Assembly (NCBI GenBank): GCA_026397335.1
Contig: JAPLVB010000048.1
Coordinates: 136 to 64,135, forward strand
Length of the DNA stretch: 64,000 nt
Reading direction: 5' to 3'
Source: Candidatus Aenigmatarchaeota archaeon
GTDB taxonomy: Archaea; Aenigmatarchaeota; Aenigmatarchaeia; QMZP01
Shown here one piece after another: positions 5,351 to 57,581 of this stretch; position 1 is the first letter of the stretch, and every line of letters starts with the position of its first letter. A program made the translations under genes and the position numbers. A model generated the notes under the pieces. The model was not told where the DNA came from and did not search any database. It saw only the letters and a list, made by a program, of their open reading frames with translations.

Positions 5351-5388
5351 GAAGGTGGTTGTAATTAGTTGGTTAGGAACCACCTTCA
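5351..5388. repeat. GAAG-hairpin repeat copy R2: GAAGGTGGTT-N18-AACCACCTTC followed by aattag
   Basis: Seen directly; ends 19 nt upstream of the gatD ATG. Confidence 0.7.
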
Positions 5389-5407
5389 ATTAGACATCGT
5401 GAATGGA

Positions 5408-6769
5408 ATGTATGCAAAAAAACTCCAGTCGATTCTTCGAAAGAAAAAAATCAGCACAGGCGAACGTATCGCGGTAGAGAAGGAGAACAGGAAGTATGAA
5501 GGCCTTCTCATGCCCAGGATAGAGCTCGGGGATCAGGAGTCGCTTGTTCTGAAGCTTGACAACGGCTACAATATCGGGATAAGGTTCGGGCCGGGAGTTA
5601 AGATAGAGAAGTCCCGCACTCATGAGCCGGAGGAAGTGAAGGAGGAGGAAGAGTACGAGCTCGGGAAGACGAAAAAGAGATATCTTGAGGTCAGCTTTGA
5701 CCCCAAAAAACCGCCAGTCTGCCTGGTAACAACAGGCGGGACAATCTCAAGCAGGGTGGATTACAGGACAGGCGGGGTTTATGCAGTCAGCAACCCCAAG
5801 GAGCTTCTGCACAATGTTCCTGAGCTGGCGGAAATAGTGAACATAAGGGAGATGGTAACTCCTTTTACAAAGATGAGCGAGGATATGGATTGTTTTGACT
5901 GGAGAAAAATAGCAGAGATTGCTGCAAAAAAGCTGAACTCGGGAGACCAGGGAGTGGTAATCGGCCATGGAACAGACACGCTCCATTTCACGGCAGCCGC
6001 TCTTTCATTCTTCCTGAGAAACCTTTCCAAGCCAGTGGTTTTGGTTGGCTCGCAGCGCTCTTCTGACCGCGGCTCTTCTGACGCGGGAATGAACCTTATA
6101 TGCGCGGCCCGCGTGGCTGTGAGCGATATTGCTGAGGTTGGAATTTGTATGCACGGGGAGCCGGACGACTCGTACTGCCTTTTCCTTCGCGGGACGAAAG
6201 TCAGGAAGATGCACACCTCAAGGAGGGACGCGTTCCGCCCGGTAAATGATTTGCCTCTCGCCAAAGTCTGGCCTGACGGGAGGCTGGACAAGATAAACCC
6301 TGAGCAGAAAAGAAGGAGCGAGGGAAAGGTGGAGCTTGATATAAAATTCGAGCCGGATATAGCTATTCTAAAAGCCTACCCGGGCTCAGACCCGGGAGTG
6401 ATTGATTATTACGTGAGAAAAGGGTACAAGGGTTTTGTGATAGAAGGGACTGGACTCGGGCATGTCCCCACATTTGCAAAAAAATCCTGGATATCCGTAA
6501 TCAAAAAACATTCCGAGCAAATCCCTTTTGTGGTTGCTCCCCAGGCGCTTTACGGAAGGGTTAATACTGATGTTTACACTAATCTCAGAATCCTCTACCA
6601 CGAAGCGAAAGCGATTCCCGGGGAGGACATGCTTCCGGAGACAGCTTACGTGAAGCTCGGGTGGGTGCTTGGTCACACAAAGAACATGGAAAAAGTTCGG
6701 GAAATGATGCTAACGAATTACGCAGGGGAGATAACGCCCAGAAGCCTGCCTGAAACGTATTTGTATTGA
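5408..6769 (+). CDS. gatD: Glutamyl-tRNA(Gln) amidotransferase subunit D
   Basis: Asparaginase-like core (TTGGTISS, GHGTDTL) after a GatD-specific N-terminal domain. Start set at MYAKK (5408) because a palindromic repeat occupies 5351-5388. Confidence 0.85.
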   Translation: MYAKKLQSILRKKKISTGERIAVEKENRKYEGLLMPRIELGDQESLVLKLDNGYNIGIRFGPGVKIEKSRTHEPEEVKEEEEYELGKTKKRYLEVSFDPKKPPVCLVTTGGTISSRVDYRTGGVYAVSNPKELLHNVPELAEIVNIREMVTPFTKMSEDMDCFDWRKIAEIAAKKLNSGDQGVVIGHGTDTLHFTAAALSFFLRNLSKPVVLVGSQRSSDRGSSDAGMNLICAARVAVSDIAEVGICMHGEPDDSYCLFLRGTKVRKMHTSRRDAFRPVNDLPLAKVWPDGRLDKINPEQKRRSEGKVELDIKFEPDIAILKAYPGSDPGVIDYYVRKGYKGFVIEGTGLGHVPTFAKKSWISVIKKHSEQIPFVVAPQALYGRVNTDVYTNLRILYHEAKAIPGEDMLPETAYVKLGWVLGHTKNMEKVREMMLTNYAGEITPRSLPETYLY

Positions 6770-6792
6770 GTCATAAAGTTATAGTCTTACAC

Positions 6793-6856
6793 GAAGTTGG
6801 CGAAGCCAACTTCTCCGTTAAGTCGCGAATAGCGAATGAAGGCGTGAAACGCCTTC
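6793..6856. repeat. Two tandem repeat copies, R3 GAAGTTGGC-GAA-GCCAACTTC and R4 GAAGGCG-TGAAA-CGCCTTC
   Basis: Seen directly. R4 ends 35 nt upstream of the HD-gene ATG and is followed by tatatcaaat. Confidence 0.8.
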
Positions 6857-6891
6857 TATATCAAATCGCGCATTGTTGCAAGGCGAAAGGC

Positions 6892-7500
6892 ATGAACCGC
6901 AAGATGGAGAAAATCAAGGAGCTCCTGAGATGGGAGCTGAGGAAGAACAACCGCATGTACGAGTGGAACCTGCACCTGATTATTGTGAAGAAGTATGCTG
7001 ACAGGCTTGCAGAGATTTACAATGCTGACAAGGAGATTGTGGAGTTATCCGTATGGCTGCATGACATAGGGAAGATACGTTACGGGGAGATCAACCACCA
7101 CATATCAGGGGCGCAGGATGCTGAAGTGATTCTCAGAGATCACAACTATCCGCAGGATGTTATAGACAAGGTAAAGGAATGCATTCTCACCCACAGGTGC
7201 GAGGCTAAGGACAAGCAGCCGGAAGGCATTGAGGCAAAGATACTGGCGACAGCTAACGCGATGTCCAAGATGGATGTTATCCCTGTATTTTTCTGGGAGG
7301 CCTGCCACGAGATGGGGCTGGGCATCCGGGAATCATGCGACTGGGTAGCTGAGGAGATTGAAAGAAACTGGTCGCGCAAAATAATTCTGCCGGAGGGAAA
7401 GGATATGGTAAGGGACAAATATGATGCTTTCAAAGTCATTGTTGAAACCACGCGGGAGTCCCTGAACGGGGAGAAGAATGTGAGGCTGCAGGTTACATAA
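6892..7500 (+). CDS. HD-domain phosphohydrolase
   Basis: HDIGK motif and downstream His/Asp residues typical of the HD superfamily. Start set at 6892 because two repeat hairpins occupy 6793-6856. Confidence 0.6.
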   Translation: MNRKMEKIKELLRWELRKNNRMYEWNLHLIIVKKYADRLAEIYNADKEIVELSVWLHDIGKIRYGEINHHISGAQDAEVILRDHNYPQDVIDKVKECILTHRCEAKDKQPEGIEAKILATANAMSKMDVIPVFFWEACHEMGLGIRESCDWVAEEIERNWSRKIILPEGKDMVRDKYDAFKVIVETTRESLNGEKNVRLQVT

Positions 7501-7545
7501 CACCAGTTGGTTCATAAATGATACATATGGTTCAAATTAAGAGCA

Positions 7546-9417
7546 ATGATAAATATGCTGGACTATGACAAAATCGGGTTGAAGTGTGGGGTGGAAATCC
7601 ATCAACAATTAGATACAAAAAAGCTTTTCTGCGGTTGCGCTTCCGAATCGCAAGAAGAGCCAAAAGCGGAAATCCGGAGAAGGCTGAGGGCTGTTGCCGG
7701 AGAGCTTGGAGAGGTGGATGTGGCAGCCCTGCACGAGGTTTTCAGGGCCAAGGAATTCCACTACAAAATCTATACGGATGCTTCCTGCCTGGTGGAGATG
7801 GACTGCGAGCCCCCGCACCAGATGAACAGGGATGCCCTGGAGATAGGGCTTACTGCAGCCGCAATGCTTAACTGCGAGATTCCTGACGAGATTCACGTGA
7901 TGCGCAAGCAGGTCATAGACGGCTCGAACACGACAGGATTCCAGAGGACTGCCATAGTCGGCCTCAAAGGATTTCTCCTGACACAGAAAAGCAGGGTTGG
8001 AATTAGCAATGTTTCGATAGAGGAAGAGGCATGTCAGATTCTCGCGACCGAAGAGAAATCCGTGACTTACGGCCTGGACAGGCTTTCCATCCCGCTTGTA
8101 GAGATTGGAACCTCTCCTGACATAAGACACCCGGAACAGGCGAAGGAGGTGTGCCAGGCTATTGGAATGCTCCTGCGCTCCACGGGAAAAGTCAGGCGCG
8201 GCATCGGGACAATACGCCAGGACATAAACATATCCGTCCGCGGCGGAGCGAGAATAGAGATAAAAGGCGCACAGGAGCTCAGGCTTATCCCGAATCTGGT
8301 TGAGAAAGAGGTTGAGAGGCAGCTCTCCCTTATCCGGATAATGAATGACCTGAAGGAGAAGGGTTTTAATCATGTGAAGCATGAAGGAACTAATGTGACG
8401 CAGATTTTCGGGAATTCCACTTCAAAAATAACTTCCGGAAAAACCACATACGCGATAAAAATCCCCGGCCTGGCAGGCTTCCTGAAAAGGAAACTCACCC
8501 CCACGCGCACGATGGGGAATGAGCTCGCGAACTATGCGAGGGTTAAGGCAGGCGTGAAAGGGATAATCCACACGGATGAGGATCTGGAAAAATACCAGCT
8601 TTCTCCTGAATTCCAGAAGCTTTCAGACTCAATGAGAACAGGACCGAATGACCTGCTTATAATAGCTGCAGGAGACTCTGACTCCTGCAGGAGGGCAATG
8701 AGAACGGTTGCGGACAGGATTAACCAGCTGCTTTCAGGAGTTCCGGAAGAAACCAGGAAAGCGCTGGAGAACGGGGACAGCGAATACATGAGGCCGCTTC
8801 CGGGTTCCGCACGCATGTATCCAGAGACGGATATCCCTCCAATCCCGCTTGATCCAGGGAAGCTCCGCGAAATCCGCAAAAATCTTCCCGAGCTTATTGA
8901 AGAGAAAATCAGCCGGTTCTCAAAACAGTACAGGATTCAGGAGGAGCTTGCAAGGCAGGTTATCCAGTCAGGGATGGCGGATACTTTTGAGAAGGGAGTG
9001 AAGATACTGATAGAGCCTGTGCTTGTCGCGAGCACGCTCACATCCACATTAACATACCTGAGGCGCGAGTCAGTTCCGGTAGAAAAGCTCACGGAAGGGC
9101 ATTTCCTGGAGATTTTCAGAGCCCTTGCGCACAAGAAATTCTCAAAAGAGAAGCTTCCCGAGATTCTCAGGCTCCAAGCAGAGAATCCGGCCCTGGGAAT
9201 TGAAAAGATTCTTGAGAAAGCAGGCGCAGAAGCCCTGCAGATGGATGAGCTAAGGCATATAGTGCGGGACATAGTTTCAAATAACCAGCAGGCCCTCTCT
9301 CTTGCGAATCCTGAGAAAGCCCTCATGGGGCTTGTGATGGAGAAGGTGCGCGGCAAGATTTCAGGAAAGCTTGTGGCGGAGGTCCTGAAGGAAGAGATTG
9401 ATAAAAGCCAGAAGTGA
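7546..9417 (+). CDS. gatE: Glutamyl-tRNA(Gln) amidotransferase subunit E
   Basis: GatE-specific N-terminus (DYDKIGLKCGVEIHQQL), a GatB-like core and a C-terminal YqeY-like tail. Confidence 0.9.
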   Translation: MINMLDYDKIGLKCGVEIHQQLDTKKLFCGCASESQEEPKAEIRRRLRAVAGELGEVDVAALHEVFRAKEFHYKIYTDASCLVEMDCEPPHQMNRDALEIGLTAAAMLNCEIPDEIHVMRKQVIDGSNTTGFQRTAIVGLKGFLLTQKSRVGISNVSIEEEACQILATEEKSVTYGLDRLSIPLVEIGTSPDIRHPEQAKEVCQAIGMLLRSTGKVRRGIGTIRQDINISVRGGARIEIKGAQELRLIPNLVEKEVERQLSLIRIMNDLKEKGFNHVKHEGTNVTQIFGNSTSKITSGKTTYAIKIPGLAGFLKRKLTPTRTMGNELANYARVKAGVKGIIHTDEDLEKYQLSPEFQKLSDSMRTGPNDLLIIAAGDSDSCRRAMRTVADRINQLLSGVPEETRKALENGDSEYMRPLPGSARMYPETDIPPIPLDPGKLREIRKNLPELIEEKISRFSKQYRIQEELARQVIQSGMADTFEKGVKILIEPVLVASTLTSTLTYLRRESVPVEKLTEGHFLEIFRALAHKKFSKEKLPEILRLQAENPALGIEKILEKAGAEALQMDELRHIVRDIVSNNQQALSLANPEKALMGLVMEKVRGKISGKLVAEVLKEEIDKSQK

Positions 9418-9465
9418 TATTTTGGATAACACAATGCTTATAAGATTTAATATAAGGATAAAGAC

Positions 9466-9825
9466 ATGAAATGTAAAGAAAAAATCCAGATAACCGAGGA
9501 AGCAAAAATTGAACCGTATCAGTACAAGGAGATTTCTCAGTTCAAAAAGGAGGACAGGGTCAGACTGGAGTGCTATAACAAAGAATGTTTTGGCATTTTC
9601 GCTTACGCTGTTCTTGCTGATGATGGAGAATCCGTGCACCCGAGTTTCAAAGGCAACGGCAGATTCCACTGGACACACATAAAAAGCCCCAAGGCCAAAT
9701 CTTTCTATTTGTCTGAACCATACAGGTGCAAAGGATGCGGAACATTGTTTGATAAAGCGATTGTTGTTCAAGAACCGCTTTTCAAAGATTTTGTAAAATT
9801 TGGGTATGACCCGGAGCCTGCTTAG
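9466..9825 (+). CDS. Hypothetical Cys-containing (zinc-ribbon-like) protein
   Basis: CYNKEC and CKGCG Cys pairs; no family recognised. Confidence 0.3.
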   Translation: MKCKEKIQITEEAKIEPYQYKEISQFKKEDRVRLECYNKECFGIFAYAVLADDGESVHPSFKGNGRFHWTHIKSPKAKSFYLSEPYRCKGCGTLFDKAIVVQEPLFKDFVKFGYDPEPA

Positions 9826-9833
9826 AATTAATT

Positions 9834-10856
9834 CTAATTTTCCTTCCTGGCTGCAGCCCACTGGACCAGGGAGCGGACGAAATCCTGGTATGTTTTCCCC
9901 GTGGCGAAGAAGGAGCGCATGAATCCTGCCTTGGGGGAGATGTCCGGGTTCGCGTTCACTTCCAGGACGTGCGGCCTTCCATTTGAGTCAAGCCTGAAGT
10001 CAACCCTCGCATAGTCCCTGAAGCGGAATATTTCAGCGCACTTTATTGCAGTTCTCTTTATCTTTTCCTCGAGATTCTTTTCAATCTCCGCGGGGCATTT
10101 CACAGGGGTGTTTTTGTATTCCTCGCTATCCTCCAGCCATTTCGCATTGTAATCCGTGATTTTTGGCTTACCTTCAGGGAAGTTCTCAAAAACTATTTCG
10201 GATATAGGGAGAATCTCGATTTCGGGATAGTTGCCGAAGAGGGAAACGTGGAACTCGCGGCCTTCGAGATACTCCTCCACGAGCGCGGGCTGCTTGAATT
10301 TGTCCAGAACGAAAGCGACCCTTTTTTCAAGATCCTCTTTGCTGTTCACAACAGCTCCGGAGTCTATCCCGAAGCTCCCGTCCTCATTATTTGGCTTCAC
10401 AATCGCGGGAAATTTGAGCGGGTAGGATATTTTTTGGGAGGAGTGGTAAATCCGGTATCTTGGAGTTGGTATGCCCTCCCTGACAAGTATGTGCTTCGTC
10501 TTCTGCTTGTCATTCGTCATTATCAGGCCGAATATGTCAGAGCCTGTATAAGGAATGTTCAGAAGGTTGAGGATAGCGGGGATGTTTATCTCGTTCTGGC
10601 TGTTCCCGTTTATGTCCTCACAGACGTTGAAGACCATGTCCACGCCGGAATTCTTTACGCGGCTGAAGAATCGCCCAATCGAATATTTCTGGTCCGAGCC
10701 GTTCAGCTCAAGCGGGATTATAACAGGCTCATGACCGAGCGATCTGATGGATTTCCTGAGAGAATTAACATCGTTCTTTATTCCTTCAATTGCGAGAACA
10801 TCATGTTCTGTTCTGCACTTCTTCCCCCCCTTGTCATAAATTATTCCGACTCTCAT
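9834..10856 (-). CDS. ATP-grasp enzyme of the D-alanine--D-alanine ligase family
   Basis: Ddl-like layout: N-terminal domain, then an ATP-grasp core with an EEYLEGREF-type motif and RVDFRLDSNGRPHVLEVNANP. Confidence 0.65.
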   Translation of the reverse strand: MRVGIIYDKGGKKCRTEHDVLAIEGIKNDVNSLRKSIRSLGHEPVIIPLELNGSDQKYSIGRFFSRVKNSGVDMVFNVCEDINGNSQNEINIPAILNLLNIPYTGSDIFGLIMTNDKQKTKHILVREGIPTPRYRIYHSSQKISYPLKFPAIVKPNNEDGSFGIDSGAVVNSKEDLEKRVAFVLDKFKQPALVEEYLEGREFHVSLFGNYPEIEILPISEIVFENFPEGKPKITDYNAKWLEDSEEYKNTPVKCPAEIEKNLEEKIKRTAIKCAEIFRFRDYARVDFRLDSNGRPHVLEVNANPDISPKAGFMRSFFATGKTYQDFVRSLVQWAAARKEN

Positions 10857-11670: not shown

Positions 11671-11772
11671 GGGATTTTCTTGGATTTCGGGTTTAAAAAG
11701 TTAACTATGTAAGGAAAAAGCCTGTTTTTACATAGGGGTATATAAATAGGTTCATATATAAATATAGTTTGT

Positions 11773-11794
11773 ATTGGTGATTGAAGGCGGCGAA
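11773..11794. repeat. Degenerate repeat copy R5: GAAGGCGGC-GAA-GCCGGCTTTT
   Basis: Seen directly; right arm imperfect. Confidence 0.5.
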
Positions 11795-12002
11795 GCCGGC
11801 TTTTCTCCAAGAATCTCCCGGGCGCCTTATAAGGGCGGCTCTTAGTTCTCTCCTTAGCACATGTGAATATGGATACTTACATATCGGTAGAGCATGGCAG
11901 GGTACATACAGCCTACCAGTATCTATCGAGTACGAACGAAAGCGAGAGCAATATCCCCACCTATAGCGGAGCCCCCGCCTCCCGATTGGAACGTGCAGTC
12001 GC

Positions 12003-14279
12003 ATGCGGTCGGGTGGAGGTATGGATAATACGCAAATCAAGGTTGATGAGCCTAGGAAGAATGAATGCGAAGCTTACCGGGTAGTTTTGCTGGACGGGGA
12101 GAGGAAAAAAGGCGAGATCAAAGACGTCAGGATTGTAAGGCTGGGCGGCCCAGAAAATAGGTATGTGAAAAGGGAGCCAGGGAAGGACAAATCGGCGGAA
12201 GGCGCTGCGCAGCGCCTTCAATCGAAGGTCGCGGTTCCTGAAATTCCAAGGGCAGCGGCTGTATCCAAAAAAAAGGGCGGCGTGCGGGTAATAGATTTGA
12301 AGAAGGCTTCCGAGAAGGAGGCCGAGAAGGCGAAAGCGAAAGCGGATTCTAAGGCAGAGGAAGAGAAGCGTCTCAGGCGCGATTTGAACAATTCCATAGC
12401 AGAGGGCTCATTCACAACCGCATCAAGCAGCATAGTAAGCTCCTACTCAACCCCCTTTGCGCTGGCGCTTAATGCCTCCAACTCTGAAATCGGGATTCTG
12501 AATTCCGTCCAGAACCTTGCCGGAATTCTTTCGCAGCTTCCTGGCGCAAGGCTCACAAAAAGCATGACCAGGAAAAAAATCTGGGTAATGTGCACCATCC
12601 TTTCCAGGCTGTTCCTGATACCGCTTATATTCATAGGGCTCTTCGCACCTTCCACAGAGATATGGCTGCTGATAATTCTCCTTGGGATGGTTGGCTTCTT
12701 TAGCAGCATGAGAGGGCCCGCATGGTCAAGCATGATGGGCGACCTCGTGCCTGTGGAAAGGAGAGGAAGATACTTCGGCAAAAGGAACATGATAATAGGG
12801 TTTGCAGGCATGGTTGCCACGCTTGGGGCAGGAGCTGCCGTATTCTACTTTGGGTTTCCTGTGATTTTTGGAATAGCCGTTGTCCTCACTTTCATATCCA
12901 TAATATTCTTTTTGCGCATAAGAGAACCAGAACTTAAACAGGAGAGAGAATATCACTACAGGCTGCATTTCCACCCGAGCGATTTAATCTACCAGATAAA
13001 GACGAACAGAAATTTCGCAATCTTCACCATCTACATGACTGTGGTGAACTTTGGTGTCAATATAGCGTCACCCTTTGCTGCTGTATATATGCTCAAGAAC
13101 CTGGATATAGGTTACGCATGGTTTGCAGTGCTGGTTACAATAGGCGCTCTGGCCCAGCTGCTTTCAATGAAATACTGGGGAAACAGGTGCGACAATTACG
13201 GGAACCGCAAGATCCTTGTGATATCCGGAATCCTGATATGCTTCGTTCCCCTAGGCTACATGCTTTCCACGAATGTTTTCCATCTTATACTCCTGAAGGT
13301 ATATGACGGGTTCGTATGGGGCGCTTTCGACCTGGTGGTGTTCAACTACCTGCTTGCCGTCACGCCTTCAGAGAAGAGGCCCGGATTCGTGGCAAACCAC
13401 AATTTCATTACAGGTGCGGGAACTGTCACAGGGGCGTTATTCGGGGCATTCCTGGCCCAGCAGTTCGAAACAAGCAGCTTCATGCTGTTCTATGGCCTCC
13501 AGCTGGTATTCCTGATATCCTTCATCCTCAGGCTAAGCTCCATATCCTTCCTGTCCAGGATAGCAGAGGTGGAGAAGAAGGAGAGCGAGCGCATTCCTGT
13601 GAGATATGTGTTCTGGGACACGGTTGCAATAGGCCCTGCAAAGGGAGTGGAGCATGCCGTGAGCAGCGCCTTCCGCTACCCTTACGGGGTTAAGATTAAA
13701 AGCAAGCTCGGACTAAATAATAACAGAAAAATAAAGCTCTCAACAAAAAAATTTGAGTCAGGGAACTCGCAAAAGCAGCGAATGAAGGTGAACGAAAGAA
13801 AGAAGGTGGAACTGGAGAACGAGACACCTTCAGGCAATAAGCCACCTTCAATCACAAATCACGTTCCAGCGAAGGTGTTTGATCATATAGGTGTCCTTCC
13901 GGTTAAAAAGCAAAAGATTGCGGGCGGATTCAGTCAAGAAAATGGGGTGTTTGAAATGGTATTAGGCAATAGGCAAAAACAGAAATCTGATGATAGAAGC
14001 GAATATGTTGAGCTTGGACTTGAGAGGCAGGCTCCCAAAACAGCGAAGATAGTGGTTCACCATCTCCAGAGGTTCTCGGAGACGGACAAGATTGTGAAGA
14101 GTATCCGCGCGAAAAACATTGTTTTCGTGGGGCTCAAGACCATGAAGCAGACCAATCTGGACGAGCTCAAGCAGGCAGTCGCAAAGATAAACAGGGCATG
14201 CATAGAGAACGGCTCGAACCTTTCGCTCGTGGAGGAGGAGTGGCTGATAATCACGCCTCAGACGGCGGCGATTGTTTAA
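12003..14279 (+). CDS. Fusion ORF joining a multi-pass (about 10-12 TM) transporter-like membrane domain to a SepF-like (DUF552) cell-division domain. The N-terminal ~187 codons are doubtful and a plausible alternative start is at 12564.
   Basis: The TM-rich core carries a GDLVPVERRGRYFG segment that resembles an MFS loop 2-3 motif, but this is weak. The last ~80 aa (KIVVHHLQRFSETDKIVKSIRAKNIVFVGL...WLIITPQTAAI) match the SepF core pattern. The linker at 13784-13855 contains a degenerate repeat copy. An in-frame ATG at 13782 could start a stand-alone 166-aa SepF if an unseen frameshift or stop exists. Confidence 0.5.
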   Translation: MRSGGGMDNTQIKVDEPRKNECEAYRVVLLDGERKKGEIKDVRIVRLGGPENRYVKREPGKDKSAEGAAQRLQSKVAVPEIPRAAAVSKKKGGVRVIDLKKASEKEAEKAKAKADSKAEEEKRLRRDLNNSIAEGSFTTASSSIVSSYSTPFALALNASNSEIGILNSVQNLAGILSQLPGARLTKSMTRKKIWVMCTILSRLFLIPLIFIGLFAPSTEIWLLIILLGMVGFFSSMRGPAWSSMMGDLVPVERRGRYFGKRNMIIGFAGMVATLGAGAAVFYFGFPVIFGIAVVLTFISIIFFLRIREPELKQEREYHYRLHFHPSDLIYQIKTNRNFAIFTIYMTVVNFGVNIASPFAAVYMLKNLDIGYAWFAVLVTIGALAQLLSMKYWGNRCDNYGNRKILVISGILICFVPLGYMLSTNVFHLILLKVYDGFVWGAFDLVVFNYLLAVTPSEKRPGFVANHNFITGAGTVTGALFGAFLAQQFETSSFMLFYGLQLVFLISFILRLSSISFLSRIAEVEKKESERIPVRYVFWDTVAIGPAKGVEHAVSSAFRYPYGVKIKSKLGLNNNRKIKLSTKKFESGNSQKQRMKVNERKKVELENETPSGNKPPSITNHVPAKVFDHIGVLPVKKQKIAGGFSQENGVFEMVLGNRQKQKSDDRSEYVELGLERQAPKTAKIVVHHLQRFSETDKIVKSIRAKNIVFVGLKTMKQTNLDELKQAVAKINRACIENGSNLSLVEEEWLIITPQTAAIV
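12198..12219. repeat. Repeat copy R6: GAAGGCGCTG-CG-CAGCGCCTTC (perfect 22-nt palindrome) followed by aatcg
   Basis: Seen directly. It lies inside the annotated N-terminal extension of the ORF at 12003-14279. Confidence 0.75.
13784..13855. repeat. Degenerate repeat copy R7 inside the transporter-SepF linker: gaaggtgaacgaaagaaagaaGGTGG...CACCTTC...ccaccttcaatca
   Basis: Near-identical to 24904-24950 (gaaggcgaacgaaagaaagaaggtgcacagcaccttcaatcg). Confidence 0.6.
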
Positions 14280-14415
14280 TGGGAAATTGGCAGAATATCA
14301 TTCCTTAATCCATTTCACAGAAAACCAAAACAGTATGAGAATACTGACAGAACTGCTTCTATATGTAGGCGATTCTGTGTTTGGTTTTTTTAAAGTTATC
14401 CTCTAATTATCCTCA

Positions 14416-14595
14416 TGCATGAGAAAGAGATTATAGTTACTGGCTATTCAGGAAATACGATTCAGTTCCTCGATCCTGAGGAAGGAAATGAATTATGCTA
14501 TACATCAGAACGTTTTCTGAAATATTTGAAAGAAAACTTTGATGTCGGAAAAGACATTGTAATAAGGGGCATACCTGGGGACTTATCTTTCTGAA
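14416..14595 (+). CDS. Hypothetical small protein of 59 aa
   Basis: Manual translation: MHEKEIIVTGYSGNTIQFLDPEEGNELCYTSERFLKYLKENFDVGKDIVIRGIPGDLSF. Below the ORF-track cutoff. Confidence 0.2.
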
Positions 14596-14690
14596 GTGCT
14601 AAATCACCAGCACACCCCACGCAACCAGCGCCTTCTCTATAAGGTTTATGGCTACGGCTGGCCTGTACAGGATTTATAACCTTCTGAATA
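14591..14690 (-). pseudogene. Diverged duplicate (about 75% identity over about 90 nt) of the 3-prime end of the marC-family gene at 15386-15480
   Basis: Direct alignment: gtgctaaatcaccagcac...ccacgc.ac.ag.gc.tt.tctat.agg.ttatggc... appears at both 14598-14685 and 15388-15475. Confidence 0.5.
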
Positions 14691-14713
14691 CTATTTAATT
14701 AATGGAGGCATCC

Positions 14714-15028
14714 ATGAAAAGCAAAGACAAGCTTTATCTTGACAGGGCCTCAATTCTTTCGGTCCTGAAGCAGAACAGGGATATCCTGAGGCAGTTCGGC
14801 CTCAAAAGGATAGGCCTCTTTGGATCCTACCTGAAAGGGGAGAGCAATCCGGACAGCGACATCGACTTCATTGTGGCGTTCAACAAAACCACGTTTGACA
14901 ATTACATGGATCTGAAATTCGCTCTGGAAAGGATTTTCAAGAGAAAGGTGGATCTTGTTATTGAGGGCAGCCTAAAGCCCGCCTTAAAGCATGTGAAAAA
15001 GGAAGCGGCCTATGCCAAAGGAATATAG
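14714..15028 (+). CDS. Minimal nucleotidyltransferase (MNT) of an MNT/HEPN toxin-antitoxin pair
   Basis: GLFGSYLKGESNPDSDIDFIV (GS-x9-DxD Pol-beta NTase motif). Confidence 0.8.
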   Translation: MKSKDKLYLDRASILSVLKQNRDILRQFGLKRIGLFGSYLKGESNPDSDIDFIVAFNKTTFDNYMDLKFALERIFKRKVDLVIEGSLKPALKHVKKEAAYAKGI

Positions 15029-15350
15029 GATCTACCTGGAAGACATACTGAGCTGCATTGGCAATATAGAAGAGTATTCAAAAGGGCTCTCATTCTCACA
15101 GTTCAGCAAAGACCAGATGAGGATAGATGCCGTGATAAGAAACCTGGAGATAATAGGGGAGGCTGTAAAGAAGCTTCCGGACGAATTCAGAAAGGATTAT
15201 CGCGATGTCGAGTGGGCCAAGATATCCGGCCTTAGGGACATACTGATACACGAGTATTTCGGCGTGAACCTGGAAATCATATGGGATGTTGTCTCAAACA
15301 AGATTCCAGACCTCAAGAAGAGCGTGAAGAAGATAATGACAGAGATCTGA
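15012..15350 (+). CDS. HEPN-domain protein (DUF86), partner of the upstream MNT
   Basis: RDILIHEY (R-x4-H HEPN motif). Overlaps the MNT gene. Confidence 0.8.
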   Translation: MPKEYRIYLEDILSCIGNIEEYSKGLSFSQFSKDQMRIDAVIRNLEIIGEAVKKLPDEFRKDYRDVEWAKISGLRDILIHEYFGVNLEIIWDVVSNKIPDLKKSVKKIMTEI

Positions 15351-15397
15351 CGCCTGCCTCATCCTATACCTTTTTCTTTCCTGAAAGCGGAGCGATG

Positions 15398-15991
15398 CTA
15401 AATCACCAGCACGTGCCACGCCACAAGGGCTTTTTCTATCAGGCTTATGGCAATTGCTGCTGTCAGGATTCCCATTATCCTTGTGAAGATTTTCAGGCCG
15501 TTGTGGCCGATTATCTTGACTATGCGCGTGCTGTAGTAGAGGAAGAAAAAGCACAGGAACATCACGAAAAATATGGCTGCCAGGGTGATTTCAGCTCCGT
15601 ATGTGTGCGTGAAGTAGATGGAGGTGGTTATTGCCCCCGGACCTGCAAGCAGGGGAGTGGCAACAGGAACTATCACATCAGACGGGTCCTTTTCCACGCT
15701 TCTTGTCTTGGGAAGCTCTCCCTTGATGAATTCGAACGAGAGGTAAAGGAGCAGGATACCGCCCGCTATCATGAATGCGGGAAGCGAGACGCTCATCCTC
15801 TCGAGGATTGCCGTACCGAAAAGGGAGAAGGCCACCAGAAGGAGGAGGGCAGCTATTGTTGCCTCCAGGGCAGCTTTTTTCTGCTTGGTCCTGTCTGACT
15901 TGCCAAAAAGCACCAGGAATGTCGGTATAGCTATAAGCGGGTCTATTATAACGAACATGGAAACGAAAACGGTGAGGAAATCCAGGGGCAT
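15398..15991 (-). CDS. MarC-family (UPF0056) integral membrane protein
   Basis: About 6 TM segments with an N-terminal FVIIDPLIAIPTFL motif characteristic of MarC/NAAT proteins. Confidence 0.75.
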   Translation of the reverse strand: MPLDFLTVFVSMFVIIDPLIAIPTFLVLFGKSDRTKQKKAALEATIAALLLLVAFSLFGTAILERMSVSLPAFMIAGGILLLYLSFEFIKGELPKTRSVEKDPSDVIVPVATPLLAGPGAITTSIYFTHTYGAEITLAAIFFVMFLCFFFLYYSTRIVKIIGHNGLKIFTRIMGILTAAIAISLIEKALVAWHVLVI

Positions 15992-17863: not shown

Positions 17864-18478
17864 CTAGAACTTAGTTTCCATTCCCTCGCGCAGCTCCTCG
17901 TATTCATGCTCGCGGTGGACATGCTTCAGGTTAAGGAGAAGCTCCCTTTCCTTGAAAAGACGCACAAGCTCAGCCACGCGGTTCTTTATGGCAAGTGTCC
18001 TTGCATTCAGCTTGTCAAGCTGCTCCCTGTCGAAAAGGCTTGTCCCGGGCTTCTCCATTACGAGAAGCTGCTTCTCTATCTCCTCGAGCTCGGAATTCAG
18101 CCTGGGAATCTCTCTCAGGAGCTCCGAGTCGTGGATGACTATCTTCTCAAGAAACTCTTCCGGTATGGTCTCGGGCCATTTCACGTGCTTTATCTTCACC
18201 CCGTCAAGGAATATGTCTATATCGTCGCGTATCTTCTGCAGGTCGGTTGTAAGGCCTTCCTTCTGCTGCTCGTATGAATTCTCAATAATATTGAAAAGGA
18301 TTTTCTTGGATTTCCTGAGCTCATCGTGAACAAGGTCTGTCATCTTCTCGTCTGTGGAAATCATGTAGTGCTTCTCGGAATAGTCATAAGAAGGTATAAG
18401 CTTCTCTATTTCCTTTATCCGCGCCCACATCTTTGTCTTCACTTCCTTCCATCCGGATTCAGCCATAAGTGCCTCCAA
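17864..18478 (-). CDS. Hypothetical coiled-coil protein
   Basis: Charged heptad-like sequence; no motif recognised. Confidence 0.4.
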   Translation of the reverse strand: MEALMAESGWKEVKTKMWARIKEIEKLIPSYDYSEKHYMISTDEKMTDLVHDELRKSKKILFNIIENSYEQQKEGLTTDLQKIRDDIDIFLDGVKIKHVKWPETIPEEFLEKIVIHDSELLREIPRLNSELEEIEKQLLVMEKPGTSLFDREQLDKLNARTLAIKNRVAELVRLFKERELLLNLKHVHREHEYEELREGMETKF

Positions 18479-18481
18479 ACA

Positions 18482-18832
18482 TCATCTCTTACTATCCAAA
18501 TCCCTTTTCAGTTTTAGCATACTGTCTTTCAATTCCGGTATGTCCCTTTGGACAACTTTCCATGTAAGTTCCAAATCAACTCCAAAATACTCGTGTATGA
18601 GGATATCTCTCATACCCGCAATCTCTTTCCATGCAATATCTGGATATTTGTTTTTTATTTCCTTTGGTATATTTTTAACCGCTTCGCCTATAATTTCAAT
18701 TCTTCTTATGACAGCATCCTGTACCTGTTCCGATTCTAAAAAACCATCCTTTGTTATTCCCTTTGTATATTCCTCAATTTTTTCTATGCATTCCAGCATA
18801 TGCTCTATGAAAACTTTCGGATCCTTTTTCAC
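18482..18832 (-). CDS. HEPN-domain protein (DUF86), paralog of the gene at 15012-15350
   Basis: [15 protein letters not shown]; about 50% identity to HEPN copy 1. Confidence 0.8.
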
Positions 18833-19116
18833 ATAATCACTTCCTGCTCGCCAAGAATCCTGTCCCTAAGAAGCGGATGCAGAGAATTATATGTAAGCAC
18901 ATCTACCTCCCTCTTCAGAACCCCCTCAAGCGTTATCTTGAGGCCTGCGAGGTCAAGGAGGCTTTTCTCGCCCCTGAACTCCACAAGCAGGTCTATATCG
19001 CTGCCTTTTTTATTCTCCCCTCTTGCGAATGACCCGAATATCGCTGCCCTTTTGACACCATAACGCTTCAGGACTGGAAGGATCTTTTTCCTTATTTCCT
19101 TATTGTCTTTTTTCAT
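18829..19116 (-). CDS. Minimal nucleotidyltransferase, partner of the HEPN protein
   Basis: [20 protein letters not shown]; its stop overlaps the HEPN start by 4 nt. Confidence 0.8.
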
Positions 19117-19168
19117 GTTATTACCCCTGGGATTACTTCTATAAATTTGGAATTATGGTTAAAAAGCC

Positions 19169-20461
19169 TTATTCCCCGTATTTGCGCCTGGATTTGTATC
19201 TCATATCCAGCTGGTAGCTTATTTCTGTCTGGTATTCCCCGGCTTCTTTGGCGGCTTTGAATGCGTATTTTTCTTCCTCCATCATTATCTCAGGCATATC
19301 AGGAATTATCAGTTCAAAACTTGTGATACCAAGTTCCGAATCCAGATCTACATCAGAAGGATAACCCAGACTTGTTTTGAAATCCCAAAGAAGCTTCCCC
19401 GTCTCAGCGGAGACACACCGCAGTTTGCAGTCCCATGAGCCGAAATATATCTTCCCGTTCCAGGCACCTGCGCCCATGGCTTCATATTCACTTATTTTTA
19501 CTTTCCAGAGCAGCCTCCCGTCAAGCCTTAGGGCATAGAAATTCTTGTCGCAGGCGCCGAAGTATACATTTCTGCCATAAACAACAGGGCAGGCATAGAG
19601 TATGTTCCCTGTCTGGAACTTCCATAACAGCCGGCCAACCTTGGAGACAGCATAGAAGTTCTGGTCATATGAGCCGAAGTAGATGACGCCTTCATGCACA
19701 GACGGAGTAGATATCACTGCGCCTCCTGTCCTGAATTTCCAAAGAAGCTCCCCATCATGGGAAAGCGCATAAAGGTGGTGGTCCCTGCTACCGAAATAGA
19801 TGCCGTCCCTATCGATTGCTATGCCCCAGTTTATCTCATCTGAAGCGGTGAACTTCCACAGAAGTCCGCCCTGCAAGTTCAGGGCGTAGAGGTTATGGTC
19901 CCATGAACCAAAGAATATGTTGTTATTATAAACGGCCGGGGTCATTATCGAAGCTTTTGCGTAAAATCTCCATAGCTCTCTTCCAGTCATTGCATCCAAC
20001 GCATAGAATATGCCATTCTTTGAGCCAAAATAGAGCACGCCTTTATGGGCAATCTGGCAAAATAATTTGCTTCCTGTTTCAAATCTCCACATTTCTTTCC
20101 CGTCTTTGGTAGACACGGCGTACATTATGCCGTCAAATCCCCCGAAATATACAATACCATTTTCTAATGCGGCCTTGTCACCTGCCAGTGGTCCGTTTGT
20201 CTTGAACCTCCATATCTCCTCTCCGGTTTCCGAATCCACTGCATAGAATTTGTGGTCGCATGCCCCAAAATAGGCTATCCCTTCATGAATAAGCACCCTG
20301 CAATCAATGCTGCCGCCTGTGCGTGTGCCCCAGAACACATCCCTGTCAGACTTCTTCAGAGTGGACCATTGCGCAACCTCTTCAATCTCGCCGAATGTTT
20401 TCCTGTCTATCCTGAATGTCGGCGTGGTCCCAGAAAGGTTGGCTGTTTCCAGATACCTCAT
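19169..20461 (-). CDS. PQQ-like beta-propeller repeat protein
   Basis: About 8 repeats of the YFGSxDxxLYALdxxtGxxlWkF type. Confidence 0.75.
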   Translation of the reverse strand: MRYLETANLSGTTPTFRIDRKTFGEIEEVAQWSTLKKSDRDVFWGTRTGGSIDCRVLIHEGIAYFGACDHKFYAVDSETGEEIWRFKTNGPLAGDKAALENGIVYFGGFDGIMYAVSTKDGKEMWRFETGSKLFCQIAHKGVLYFGSKNGIFYALDAMTGRELWRFYAKASIMTPAVYNNNIFFGSWDHNLYALNLQGGLLWKFTASDEINWGIAIDRDGIYFGSRDHHLYALSHDGELLWKFRTGGAVISTPSVHEGVIYFGSYDQNFYAVSKVGRLLWKFQTGNILYACPVVYGRNVYFGACDKNFYALRLDGRLLWKVKISEYEAMGAGAWNGKIYFGSWDCKLRCVSAETGKLLWDFKTSLGYPSDVDLDSELGITSFELIIPDMPEIMMEEEKYAFKAAKEAGEYQTEISYQLDMRYKSRRKYGE

Positions 20462-20776
20462 ACTAATTATATGGCATCCAAAGGTAAAAAAGCCTTTTGC
20501 CGAATCCCTGTGGAAAGGCTTTTATCCCTTAGGAACACACTGTTGCCATGGACAAGAGGCATTCCTGCAGGACGCTTCTCAGGGACAGGTATCTCACGAT
20601 ATTCGAGGAGAGCCTCTATCCCGTCAAGTATTGCCCTGCGTGCGGAGTCTATGTCTATTCTGATGAGAAATCGGGCCAGAGGACAGTGGGCATGGAAACC
20701 AAGGACCCTCAAGTCGTGATGACGTATCTGGAGAGCCATATAATTGAGAATATGGAGAATCTGCCGCTTTCCTGAA

Positions 20777-22824
20777 TCAGATGAAAAGCGGCGCCAGAAC
20801 CAGTGTTATTGTGGCTAACAGCTTGATGAGAACATGAAGGCTGGGGCCTGCCGTGTCCTTCAGCGGGTCTCCAAAAGTGTCTCCGACCACAGCCGCCTTG
20901 TGCGCTTCCGAGCCTTTCCCTCCCAGGGCTCCTGTCTCTATGTATTTCTTTGCGTTGTCCCATGCGCCGCCGCCATTGTTCATGACAGTGGCGAGGAGGA
21001 CTCCTGATATTGTCCCGACCATAAGAAACGCGGCCACGGCTTCTGCCTTAAGCACAATTCCCACTATCACGGGGAATGCGATTGCAAGAATCCCGGGAAG
21101 AACCATGTTCTTTAGCGCTCCCTTTGTGGTTATGTCCACACACTTCGCGTAATCAGGCTTCTTGGTCCCTTTCATTATTCCCTTGTCCCTGAACTGCCTT
21201 CTGACTTCCTCTATTATGTAGCCTGCTGTCTTGCCTACAGCCCTGATTGCCAATGAGCTGAACAGGAAGACCAGCATTGCACCAAGCATTGCTCCCACGA
21301 AAACAGGCACTTTTGCCAGATCCACCACAGCAAAAGCCTTTCCTGTTATGGATGCTACCTCGCCCATGTAAGCTGAGAACAAAAGGAAGGCTGCTAGAGC
21401 AGCGGAACCGATTGCATATCCCTTTGTGAGGGCTTTTGTGGTATTGCCAACCGCATCAAGCCTGTCCGTGTTCTTCCGGATATCTTTCGGGGCGTTGGAC
21501 ATCTCCACAATACCTCCCGCATTATCTGTTATCGGTCCGAAGGTGTCCATGGCAAGTATGTAGGCAGCTGTGGCAAGCATTCCCATGGTCGCGATGGCTG
21601 TCCCGTAAAGCCCGCCGTTCGGAACCCCGGACATCACGCCAAAGGTGTATGAGAGTATTAAAGAGAAGGATATCACTATTATCGGAAGGGCTGTGTTCTC
21701 AAGCGCGACTGAGAAGCCTGTGATTATATTTGTGGCAGTGCCTGTCTTGGATGCCTCGGCAATGCTCCTGACCGGCCTGTACCTGTATTCTGTGTAGTAT
21801 TGTGTTATGTAAACGAACAGCAGGCTCATGACAAGGCCCACCATGCCCGCATAAAAGAACCATATTGCCTGTTCAGGCTTCCCGAGAAGGCTCATGCTGG
21901 CAAAATAGAACAATATCGCGGCAAGTATGCTCGCAACATAATATCCCCTGTTAAGCGCTTTCATCGGGTCTTCATTCTCCCTCGCCTTCGCAACCAATAT
22001 CCCTATTATCGAGGCTATAAGGCCGAATGACCTCGCAACCAGAGGAAATAGAATCCCTCCCACCCCGAAGACCGGGAACAGTGCAACGCCAAGTATCATG
22101 GCTCCTATGTTCTCTGCTGCTGTGCTTTCGAAAAGGTCCGCGCCTCTCCCTGCGCAGTCCCCGACATTGTCACCCACGAGGTCAGCCACGACAGCAGGGT
22201 TTCTCGGGTCATCTTCTGGGATTCCTGCCTCAAGCTTGCCCACAAGGTCTGCTCCCACATCCGCAGCCTTTGTGTATATTCCACCGCCAAGCTGCGCAAA
22301 CAATGCGACAAATGAAGCGCCAAACGCGTAACCCACAATCATGAACGGGGTCTTTACAGGGTCTGCGCCAAAAATGTAATAAATCCCGGCCACCCCTATG
22401 AGGGAAAGCGCGACAACAAATATACCTGAAACAGCTCCGCCAAGTATGGCCACCCTCATTGCGTGGGCGGCTGACTTCTTTGCGGCTGCAGCTGTCCTGA
22501 GATTCGCCCTTACGGATATGGACATCCCTATTATGCCCGCAAGGGCAGAGCAGAATGCTCCAAGAATGAATGCGCTTGATGTGTGGATTGCGTAATCCCA
22601 CTTGCCGACATAGGAATAAACCCCGAAAATTACCAGCGCTGTCACAACAGCCAGGATTGCTATGGTCCTGTACTGCCTCTTTATGAATGCCTCAGCACCC
22701 TCGCGGATGTGGTCAGCTATCTCCTGCATCTTGGGCGTTCCCTTGTCCTGCTTGAGCACGTACCACGCGAAAAAGAGCGCAACGAGTATAGAGAAAATTG
22801 CTATGCCAAATACAATTTCTAACA
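20777..22824 (-). CDS. hppA: Membrane-bound proton/sodium-translocating pyrophosphatase (V-PPase)
   Basis: GGGIYTKAADVGADLVGK and DNVGDCAGRGADLFES signatures. Start set at MLEIVFG (22824) because a repeat hairpin occupies 22856-22874. Confidence 0.9.
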
Positions 22825-22855
22825 TGTTTGCACCGCTCAAAATTTCTTTTTGCTC

Positions 22856-24957: not shown

Positions 24958-24979
24958 AATCTAAACGCGAGGTGTAAAA

Positions 24980-29162: not shown

Positions 29163-29167
29163 AATAC

Positions 29168-56717: not shown

Positions 56718-56918
56718 TCACCTTCGGCTCATGGCAGCCACGCTGTCCATTGTAGTGTCCTTTAGGAGTATCACATCTCCCCTCTTTATTGGGCCTACAA
56801 CATTCCTTGTAAGAATCTTCCCCTTGTCCCTTCCGTCAAGGACCTTGCACCTGACCCTGCACACTCCCTTGACTCCTAACCTTTCCATAACCTGGATAAT
56901 TTCTGCTGCATCAGGCAT
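56718..56918 (-). CDS. rps28e: Ribosomal protein S28e
   Basis: AEIIQV..R.G..G....RCK.L.GRDKG.ILTRNV.GP...GD.L pattern. Confidence 0.85.
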   Translation of the reverse strand: MPDAAEIIQVMERLGVKGVCRVRCKVLDGRDKGKILTRNVVGPIKRGDVILLKDTTMDSVAAMSRR

Positions 56919-56959
56919 GCTTTCACCTTTTGACTTGCAATATATATGACAATACCAAT

Positions 56960-56980
56960 GAAGTAGGCTACGCCTACTTC
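56960..56980. repeat. Repeat copy R16: GAAGTAGGC-TAC-GCCTACTTC
   Basis: Seen directly; 41 nt upstream of the S28e ATG on the minus strand. Confidence 0.75.
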
Positions 56981-57046
56981 GCGTAAGGCTTTCGCCTCAC
57001 AACACTTAATTATTTGAAATTTTAACTTTTCGACTTAACGGAGAAG

Positions 57047-57104
57047 GATTCTGGAGTGAAGGCGAATTTGAGTTGGAAGTCGGCTATGCCGACTTCGTTC
57101 TTTC
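57047..57104. repeat. Nested repeat copy R14: outer GAAGGCG/CGCCTTC enclosing GAAGTCGGC-TAT-GCCGACTTC
   Basis: Seen directly; lies between the S28e and L7Ae genes. Confidence 0.8.
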
Positions 57105-57164
57105 GAACGCCTTCTTTCTAAGTTCCTGCGCCTACTTTAAATAAGATTTGTGTTTTGCAAATCC

Positions 57165-57527
57165 TTATTTCATGAGCGACTTGACTTTCTCCGCAATCTC
57201 GTTCACCAGCTTCTTCGCGTCACCTTCCTGCGCAATTGCGATTGATGAGGTGGGAACGTCTATCCCGCATGCCTTGCCTAGCTCAACCTTTGAAGGCACA
57301 AAAACATACGGCACTTTCTTCTCATCGCATAGAACCGGAAGATGCATAAGGATCTCCGGAGGCGTGACGTCCTCGGCCATTACAACAAGCTTTGCAATTC
57401 CCCTGTCTATCGCCTTGGTGGTCTCGTTTACGCCTTTCTTGATCTTTCCGCTGGATTTCGCGACTGTAACGGCTTCGTAAACCTTTTCCACAAGATCCTT
57501 CGAAACCTTGAATTTCACGAATGTCAT
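57165..57527 (-). CDS. rpl7ae: Ribosomal protein L7Ae (K-turn binding)
   Basis: Full-length match ([28 protein letters not shown]...LP.LC.EK..PY..V.SK..LG.A.GI). GGAGG lies 7 nt upstream of the ATG. Confidence 0.9.
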
Positions 57528-57560
57528 ATCATCCCCTCCTAAAAGGTACGATTTTGGAAA

Positions 57561-57581
57561 GAAGGCGACTTCGTCACCTTC
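57561..57581. repeat. Repeat copy R15: GAAGGCGAC-TTC-GTCACCTTC followed by aaac
   Basis: Seen directly; 33 nt upstream of the L7Ae ATG on the minus strand. Confidence 0.75.

Follow-up and report, generated by a model that had tools for sequence, protein, structure and literature searches.

A 64,000-nt stretch of a Candidatus Aenigmarchaeota genome (contig JAPLVB010000048.1), here called the window, carries many short hairpins whose stems open with GAAG and close with CTTC, several of them a little way upstream of start codons. A preliminary description placed them at a fixed offset from these starts, on or just upstream of the BRE/TATA position (TFB recognition element and TATA box) of the promoter. 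What are these hairpins, and why do they lie where they do? The fixed, promoter-overlapping offset is not supported by our analysis. We think it probable, if well short of certain, that the hairpins are a lineage-specific, non-autonomous palindromic repeat of this genome that persists where it is tolerated.

The GAAG hairpins and their copies

We counted 12 perfect GAAG...CTTC hairpins in the window (GAAG foot, stem of at least 8 bp, loop of 3-5 nt) where first-order Markov simulations predict 0.13; the hairpins reported in the preliminary description are indeed there. The same scan returned at most four hairpins for any other 4-mer foot. A relaxed scan, permitting one transition mismatch, long loops and outer tiers, found 18 sites with ~21 hairpins (strand as + or - where assigned; ORF, open reading frame; K-turn, kink-turn):

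907-928, hairpin GAAGGCGTC-tctt-GACGCCTTC, adjoining the FtsY stop codon
3178-3198 (+), hairpin GAAGGCGGC-tcc-GCCACCTTC with the canonical flanks ggaaa and aatcg
5351-5387 (+), hairpin, stem 10 bp (GAAGGTGGTT/AACCACCTTC), loop 17 nt; the gatD ATG is at 5408
6793-6813, hairpin GAAGTTGGC-gaa-GCCAACTTC in the 122-nt spacer between gatD and the HD-domain gene
6838-6856, hairpin GAAGGCGT-gaa-ACGCCTTC before the HD-domain gene ATG at 6892
11783-11803, degenerate copy GAAGGCGGC-gaa-GCCGGCTTT, within the divergent spacer 11671-12020
12198-12219 (+), hairpin GAAGGCGCT-gcgc-AGCGCCTTC, an in-frame copy within the N-terminal linker of ORF 12021-14279
13784-13870 (+), degenerate multi-tier array GAAGGTGA..GAAGGTGG..CCACCTTC..CACgTTC in the MFS/SepF-like linker of ORF 12021-14279
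22856-22874 (-), hairpin, on the minus strand GAAGGTGT-ttc-ACGCCTTC, before the V-PPase ATG at 22825
24662-24682 (+), hairpin GAAGTCGGC-tct-GCCGGCTTC in the divergent spacer between an AMP-phosphorylase-like gene and MC1
24838-24858 (-), hairpin GAAGTCGGC-ttc-GCCGACTTC, part of the MC1 leader and downstream of a conserved BRE/TATA
24904-24957 (+), two-tier element in the MC1 leader, outer arms GAAGGCGA/TCGCCTTC, inner hairpin 24922-24940 (GAAGGTGC-aca-GCACCTTC)
33668-33724, two-tier element, outer arms GAAGTCGGAA/TTCCGACTTC, inner hairpin 33686-33705, making up nearly the whole tRNA-Pro intron
33782-33803 (+), hairpin GAAGGTGTC-tctt-GACACCTTC, 86 nt from the aminotransferase ATG
39210-39228, hairpin GAAGTTGT-gaa-GCAGCTTC, an in-frame copy within the C-terminal tail of a Na+/H+ exchanger
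56960-56980 (-), hairpin GAAGTAGGC-tac-GCCTACTTC within the 246-nt L7Ae-S28e spacer
57058-57114 (-), two-tier element within the L7Ae-S28e spacer, outer arms GAAGGCG/CGCCTTC, inner hairpin 57076-57096
57561-57581, hairpin, in mRNA sense GAAGGUGAC-gaa-GUCGCCUUC, at the apex of the L7Ae K-turn stem-loop

Fifteen of the 18 sites are in spacers, though spacers make up roughly 15% of the window, a preference far beyond chance.

Together with copies from related contigs the family set came to 76. Its core module of ~21 nt reads GAAG[G/T]NNN(N), a loop of 3-4 nt, then (N)NNN[C/A]CTTC. The foot of 4-5 bp is conserved, with GAAG/CTTC in every copy; the upper stem is variable yet complementary (GCGTC, GTGTC, GCGAC, TCGGC and others), the loops vary as well, and a C/T-G/A hybrid at stem position 6 accounts for about half of the single mismatches. 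Asymmetric A-rich flanks of ~10 nt, (G/A)GAAA (..GGAAA) on the left and AATCGAAA(T)TC on the right, extend the full unit to ~40 nt, and by inspection all three frames of its canonical strand are open. The hairpins fold stably (folding z-score of the MC1 leader, -4.1).

The family is dispersed and confined to one lineage. Among the L7Ae loci of species-representative genomes, which comprised two close relatives and ~78 distant ones that served as negative controls, the nearest were L001 and L002 (two metagenome-assembled genomes, 88% protein identity), compared with 64-73% for distant Aenigmarchaeota. A scan of metagenome contigs for the flank pattern gave 76 loci, 29 of them with perfect hairpins; their sources are a small number of samples, of sediment or wetland, and their GC content is similar. 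Several of the related contigs are syntenic with the window at 75-90% nucleotide identity. The density of the family is high in the window and in L001, L133, L134 and loci like them, and approximately zero in the L7Ae loci of more distant Aenigmarchaeota. The flank pattern had no match in viral contigs.

Some other resemblances were considered. The generic hairpins are not K-turns, a structure formed only by the L7Ae leader around copy 57561; inspection of the sequence indicates that generic copies cannot form the sheared G.A pairs, because the GA of the foot makes Watson-Crick pairs with UC. A likeness to the ends of CRISPR repeats (ATTGAAG) and to origin boxes of the mini-ORB type (TTCCAG) was superficial and was dropped. 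GAAGGUG/CACCUUC might mimic the Shine-Dalgarno (SD) sequence or its complement; the real SD motifs are located elsewhere.

A second small palindrome, GACAGCC-tcc-GGCTGTC or GACAGC...GCTGTC, lies in L120 (~2830-2880) and L133 (1650-1720). It recurs in the protein linkers that hold GAAG units, and around GAAG units; the lineage may have more than one palindromic family.

Turnover, nesting and tRNA introns

Relatives at ~80% identity have orthologous sites that may be filled, empty or filled in another way. In the window the L7Ae-S28e spacer has three hairpins and a length of 246 nt; in L001 and L002 it is ~35 nt long and hairpin-free. L001 has an extra ~55-nt element upstream of L7Ae. In L120 a nested element lies between a TATA box and an apparently leaderless ATG, 15 nt upstream of that ATG, where the window is uninterrupted. 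Neither L161 nor L157 has the two-tier element of the MC1 leader, a near-identical counterpart of which occurs in L084; hairpin 24838 of the same leader is decayed in L161 and absent from L157, and hairpin 24662 has no copy in either. The V-PPase leader of L133 holds a different, degenerate nested arrangement, and elsewhere L133 has two hairpins where the window keeps only a remnant, GGAAAGAAG abutting CAGTTGAC. The flanks are alike among copies (TCGAAA-like on both sides), which may reflect a target preference or belong to the unit itself. One part of the preliminary description, that the hairpins are insertions beside highly expressed genes, is borne out by these filled and empty sites, and its proposal to compare orthologous promoters indeed revealed insertions that some relatives lack; its further suggestion that they would rewire expression is taken up below.

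Copies also lie in frame within proteins. Hairpin 12198 encodes EGAAQRLQ; on either side of it L120 and L133 share the conserved protein read from ATG 12021, and the L120 orthologue holds only a stub there, GAAGG-ttcc-CCTTT. At the MFS/SepF-like linker L133 has a different array at a neighbouring place, with the frame open in both. Hairpin 39210 is contained in an in-frame insert of 14 residues (EERPSKEAASQLPSI) in the Na+/H+ exchanger tail, an insert that the L157 and L161 orthologues lack.

ORF 12021-14279 (+) comprises a ~50-residue conserved N-terminal domain, an MFS transporter and a SepF-like domain (PF04472), in one frame in L133 also. It includes a putative internal SD and ATG (GGGGTGTTTGAAATGG, ~13942), from which the SepF-like part may also be made separately.

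The units nest. In 19 of the 76 copies a second GAAG...CTTC tier encloses the hairpin; the spacers measure 7-12 nt and the span is almost constant, at 54-60 nt. Three-tier forms occur in L084. Copy-specific outer stems of at least 7 bp are found in 24% of copies, against 4.7% when flanks are re-paired across copies. Nesting has also arisen at orthologous sites, among them a tRNA gene and its syntenic counterparts:

33622-33770 (-), tRNA-Pro(CGG) gene, intron of 74 nt at the canonical position 37/38 (ARAGORN -i)
L157 9775-9887, L160 ~9664-9923, L161 ~9380-9600, syntenic tRNA genes

ARAGORN with introns allowed confirmed that tRNA-Pro(CGG) is real; default ARAGORN and Rfam miss it. Its intron has a near-canonical bulge-helix-bulge (BHB). 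The L157 intron measures 37 nt and has one hairpin, GAAGGCGGC-gaa-GCCTCCTTC; that of the window, 74 nt long, shares its flanks and outer arms and holds a ~38-nt unit in the loop; the length reaches ~90 nt in L161 and ~185 nt, with three to four hairpins, in L160. The hairpin at -11 of this gene behaves likewise, being single with an AAGA loop in the window and L160, while in L157 identical outer arms enclose a loop in which another unit is nested. A tRNA-Val(CAC) of L134 has a hairpin in its D loop, and the tRNA call is restored once the insert is removed. Another L134 hairpin forms a 39-nt T-loop intron with a canonical BHB, the excision of which gives GGCGG-TTCGAAT-CCGCC; its hBHBh' motif is made of h GGCGG/CCGCC, H UUCG/CGAA and the bulges AAA and AUU, with UUCGAAU as the predicted spliced T loop. 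Units therefore occupy the anticodon, D and T loops of tRNAs, in addition to the L7Ae K-turn apex.

The syntenic tRNA of L160 and L161 has an identical body with the anticodon loop TTGCG(G/A), called Arg-GCG by ARAGORN; a changed anticodon, another splice site or a wrong call could each account for this. A separate intron of L161, in a T loop, is of non-GAAG type. In the tRNA cluster of L134 (357-951 and 1528-1701) nearly all tRNAs hold one to three long inserts at the D, anticodon and T loops, only some of which contain GAAG hairpins.

How might such a repeat spread? We propose that copies move at the DNA level via a trans-acting enzyme, the likeliest kind being one that recognises single-stranded hairpins, like the Y1/HUH transposases that move repetitive extragenic palindromic (REP) and insertion sequence (IS) IS200/IS605 elements. 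Insertion would favour exposed hairpin loops, whether the family's own, those of tRNAs or the K-turn apex, and selection would then spare the harmless copies: those in spacers, in tRNA loops cleared by the splicing endonuclease and in in-frame linkers. A unit landing downstream of a TATA box would put a stable stem-loop into the 5' leader and could change mRNA stability or translation; such effects on expression are plausible. As a tentative extension, possible rather than probable, a loop-seeking mobile GAAG palindrome would create and then enlarge tRNA introns at canonical and non-canonical positions, while it also nests, fills spacers and adds in-frame peptides.

Several observations weigh against a mobile repeat that is simply tolerated. 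First, neither a transposase nor any other mobilising gene was seen in the 64 kb and the relatives' fragments; the ten hairpin-flanking genes run against Pfam included no transposase. Second, filled/empty pairs (L7Ae, L133, L120, tRNA-Pro) show no consistent target-site duplication, and some of our 'insertions' could be deletions because the indels are unpolarised. Third, the 15 convergent spacers of the window hold no copy, although they come to only 434 nt in all. Fourth, the upper stems diverge but pair almost perfectly, which fits structural selection and not simple copying from a single master, although intramolecular templated palindrome repair or conversion between copies could have the same result. 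Finally, a hairpin is kept at one place in three genomes both in the L7Ae leader and 11 nt upstream of tRNA-Pro, and selection for an RNA function is possible for these two copies.

Leaders, promoters and start codons

In the L7Ae leader a copy lies within a K-turn stem-loop.

57533-57603 (-), L7Ae leader K-turn stem-loop, 5' strand CCU-GA-AAAGG, 3' strand CCUUU-UAG-GA-GGG(G)

It has a non-canonical (NC) stem CCU/GGG, tandem G.A/A.G pairs, a UAG bulge and a canonical stem (C-stem) that covaries among the window, L001 and L002 (AAAGG/CCUUU, AGGUCGUU/GGCGACCU and AAGCG/CGCUU). The terminal part of the 3' strand, within the NC strand, is the SD; because this strand of the K-turn carries the SD, the hairpin must be part of the 5' untranslated region (UTR). 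Aligned leaders of the same three genomes show a TATA box TTATATAAT, an invariant TTAGACCTGAA, the hairpin and then TTAGGAGGGGATGAT. An autoregulatory K-turn bound by L7Ae is known from the l7ae 5' UTR (Daume et al., PMC5539422; Huang et al., PMC6298567), and the C-stem, 3-nt bulge, tandem G.A/A.G and SD-adjacent NC stem are the same here, in a layout that agrees with PMC6298567. The window leader matches the autoregulatory leader of these papers. This system accounts for just one hairpin (57561), from which the generic GAAG hairpins differ. A short GC hairpin replaces the GAAG hairpin at the terminal loop of the L7Ae K-turn in distant relatives. A hint of conversion between copies comes from L002, whose stem at this site is of the TCGGC type, a sub-type frequent at other places in the window.

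Could the whole family be selected RNA structure, that is, stem-loops of UTRs and intercistronic regions acting for example as exonuclease end protectors or as the site of one RNA-binding protein? The maintained pairing of variable upper stems, the two conserved positions, the stable folding and a conserved foot and flanks with tandem A.A mismatches, as for a recognition site, would all suit such a family. We nevertheless judge this unlikely. Copies stand in both orientations upstream of genes (~13 sense and 8 antisense relative to the nearest downstream gene, not a significant difference), and G.U versus A.C mismatches show no bias toward the transcribed strand; both observations speak against strand-specific selection acting on RNA. 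Orthologous sites gain and lose hairpins fast, even in the leaders of one gene, in-frame protein copies and tRNA-loop copies sit where such a function would make no sense, and a search of the hairpin regions against Rfam, at gathering and E-value thresholds, gave no relevant family. Co-option may apply to the L7Ae K-turn apex and tRNA-Pro -11 copies, judging by their positional conservation across three genomes.

The promoter-proximal explanation holds that the elements were inserted or co-opted at the BRE/TATA, at a set distance from starts, and rewire highly expressed genes. It began with seven distances, which we confirm within 1 nt. From hairpin end to ATG these are 20 nt for gatD (5387 to 5408; previously given as 19), 35 nt for the HD-domain gene (6856 to 6892), 30 nt for V-PPase (22856 to 22825; previously 31), 22 nt for MC1 (outer arm end 24957 to 24980), 33 nt for L7Ae (57561 to 57527) and 41 nt for S28e (56960 to 56918), and there are 11 nt between hairpin end 33782 and the tRNA-Pro 5' end at 33770. 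The seven are a selection out of 18 sites and range over 11-41 nt, which is no fixed offset. For several others (3178, 24662, 24838, 57058-57114 and 11783) the distance to any start codon is 60-300 nt. Hairpin 3178, for instance, is 60 nt past an egsA-like stop and 116 nt ahead of the PcrB start, with AT-rich TATA-like boxes on its downstream side, and hairpin 24662 is 77 nt from the minus-strand start. Still others are in ORFs (12198, 13784-13870, 39210), in the tRNA intron (33668-33724) and at a stop codon (907-928), where the last two bases of the hairpin foot supply the GA of the FtsY TGA (minus strand, 927-929). When each hairpin block was placed uniformly inside its own spacer and the distance to the nearest start codon compared, we saw no positional bias toward starts (Fisher p=0.27, Kolmogorov-Smirnov p=0.32); their nearness to start codons would for the most part follow from the short spacers of this compact genome.

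Nor is a place on or just upstream of the BRE/TATA supported: wherever this can be judged from sequence and conservation (MC1, L7Ae, V-PPase and gatD) the predicted TATA box is upstream of the hairpin. TATA-like boxes occur ~30-40 nt upstream of the hairpin at gatD (5314-5328), V-PPase (22906-22916) and L7Ae (57614-57641). At MC1 the predicted promoter itself is conserved:

24776-24789 (+), MC1 BRE/TATA AAAACATTTATATA, conserved in L157 and L161

It stands upstream of every MC1 leader hairpin, including the two-tier element that gives the 22 nt and is missing from both relatives. The L7Ae, S28e and MC1 transcripts are not leaderless, because SD motifs are present (GGAGGGG, AAGGTGA and GAGGTG). 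Two of the seven copies, those of HD and S28e, sit between genes that appear to form operons. Where the TATA box can be judged, the hairpins are predicted to lie in 5' leaders, not on promoters. The hairpins are almost certainly transcribed together with the neighbouring highly expressed genes. A preference for inserting near promoters is likewise not supported by the relatives, where 24 copies could be classified using ORF-based gene calls: 8 lie between convergent genes, 10 in co-directional and 6 in divergent spacers. Since all spacer classes are occupied, the family is not promoter-specific, and the relatives hold copies in proteins and tRNA loops as well. The window loci and 146 flanks gave neither the TATA overlap nor the fixed distance expected of a core promoter element; a fixed TATA-to-foot distance, suggested by four window cases at -42/-43, was rejected for want of a sharp peak over the 146 flanks. 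The promoter-proximal explanation can still point to the seven near copies, to the L120 element between TATA and ATG, the one case that does suit it, and to the tRNA-Pro -11 copy, which could overlap the promoter of that gene. Set against the copies in convergent spacers, ORFs and tRNA introns, these leave it improbable.

Directly upstream of the MC1 BRE/TATA, a block AACCGACAAGGAGTTAAATCA...CAAAACCAG at 24730-24775 (+) is conserved in L161, where the reading frame is not constant; it is likely an upstream regulatory site for MC1. A 29-residue ORF after hairpin 24662 was rejected as a gene: its frame is not conserved in L161, and the region is therefore conserved MC1 upstream DNA.

A mobile BHB intron, of which every copy would be spliced from any RNA by the tRNA splicing endonuclease and so be phenotypically silent, is very unlikely. 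It would explain copies within open reading frames, and the textbook hBHBh' of the L134 T-loop copy and the near-canonical BHB of the window tRNA-Pro intron are of the right kind. Generic copies, however, are not enriched in BHBs (16 of 150 flank sets are correctly handed, compared with 14 for the mirror image and 12.3 for shuffled flanks), and the tRNA BHBs are built largely of tRNA exon sequence. Least credible of all is a double-stranded DNA operator with GAAGG..CCTTC half-sites for a dimeric global transcription factor: the conserved half-sites are inverted and many copies are near promoters, but the bases between them are always self-complementary, which such a site would not require, the spacing changes with stem and loop length, and nested tiers, tRNA-intron copies and coding copies are left unexplained.

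Known repeats and other features of the window

Dispersed palindromic repeats are well studied in bacteria and little in archaea. Bacterial REP, REPIN and BIME elements (REP sequences, their inverted doublets and mosaic clusters) are mobilised by RAYT, a Y1/HUH transposase, and REPs favour the 3' ends of genes. The GAAG family shares with REPs a short (20-40 nt) imperfect palindrome with a conserved tetranucleotide foot, many dispersed and overwhelmingly extragenic copies in both orientations and in clusters, compensated stem changes between sub-types, rapid turnover and transcribed stem-loops. It differs in the foot (GAAG/CTTC, where REPs have GT[AG]G) and in its composites, which are concentric with a 54-60 nt span, unlike the REPIN, where two inverted REPs form one long hairpin. 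GAAG copies are also found in tRNA loops and in frame in proteins, the window copies are mostly 5' of genes, and the ten flanking genes run against Pfam include no RAYT. A count of REP-like palindromes in archaeal genomes has been made using a general tool (PMC12306157).

Rickettsia palindromic elements (RPE) occur both in spacers and in frame in protein-coding genes (PMC1779305). The spacer copies, the in-frame coding copies (39210, 12198) and lineage-specific proliferation are common to both families; RPEs are 100-150 bp long and bacterial (Rickettsiales), whereas the GAAG unit is ~40 nt with a 21-nt core, archaeal, and nests in its own and in tRNA loops. The GAAG family works like REP and RPE and is a member of neither. 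Archaeal miniature inverted-repeat transposable elements (MITEs) and palindrome-associated elements derived from IS200/IS605 are likewise non-autonomous, structured, dispersed and able to nest. The GAAG unit is far shorter than typical MITEs, and we saw no separate terminal inverted repeats, consistent target-site duplication or parent IS in the analysed sequences.

Archaeal tRNA introns with BHB junctions are known at non-canonical positions, as is intron transposition (reviewed in PMC4090602), and ultrasmall archaea have a splicing endonuclease of broad specificity (PMC3239211). In keeping with this, the element makes up an intron wholly or for the most part in three tRNA genes here (at 37/38, D loop and 59/60), one of them with a canonical BHB; generic GAAG copies lack a BHB, and such introns have not been reported as members of a genome-wide intergenic repeat family. 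Our literature searches turned up no description of the GAAG element, of a dispersed repeat that also builds tRNA introns, or of any dispersed palindromic repeat in DPANN lineages. The main interest of the family is the tRNA-intron link together with loop targeting, and the former is the most novel lead. If the loop-seeking reading holds, at least some archaeal tRNA introns would originate from a REP-like selfish repeat; loop targeting would then offer a testable route to the origin and growth of these introns, a long-standing open question, and would make the family a source of leader variation for highly expressed genes. One small genome combines self-nesting, in-frame protein inserts, occupation of a K-turn loop and tRNA-intron formation, with natural filled and empty alleles in its relatives. 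For annotation, the family explains why default tools miss tRNA-Pro, why some ORFs seem extended or fused and why spacers are locally inflated in a compact genome.

As to the genes around the hairpins, Pfam agrees with the names gatD, HD-domain and MC1 used in the preliminary description and also identifies FtsY, PcrB, the MFS transporter, the aminotransferase and the Na/H exchanger. V-PPase, L7Ae, S28e and L24e were recognised from their translations. The aminotransferase has 100% identity to an NCBI protein of a Candidatus Aenigmarchaeota archaeon, whereas V-PPase, L7Ae and MC1 gave no exact protein match.

20777-22825 (-), V-PPase
33890-35188, aminotransferase
56718-56918 (-), S28e
57165-57527 (-), L7Ae

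Other features of the window deserve brief mention. Upstream of gatD, a 360-nt spacer contains a small, very basic ORF at 5141-5224 (-), MPAKKAAKKASAKTMKKKASASGCCCC. The ~1.1 kb at 14280-15400 hold small ORFs and a 64-nt direct repeat (14597-14660 and 15396-15459, 80% identical); the L133 counterpart is ~100 nt with one GAAG hairpin between convergent genes. At 17864-19116 (-) a cluster of small ORFs resembles, by translations alone, a nucleotidyltransferase/HEPN-type toxin-antitoxin pair. The region 18468-20781 has no aligned counterpart in syntenic L133, where only ~420 nt are found. Two paralogous proteins of ~430 residues, at 19169-20461 (-) and 35687-36976 (-), have internal 117-nt (39-residue) repeats, families D2-D4. 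Finally, a low-GC island at ~28000-32000 (39%, compared with ~47%) has AT-rich repeat blocks (29777-29914 and 31696-31780) flanking small ORFs, and its ORF 30486-31064 (minus) appears integrase-like by translation. L157, L160 and L161 have integrase genes at the syntenic place, and the island is probably an old integrated element.

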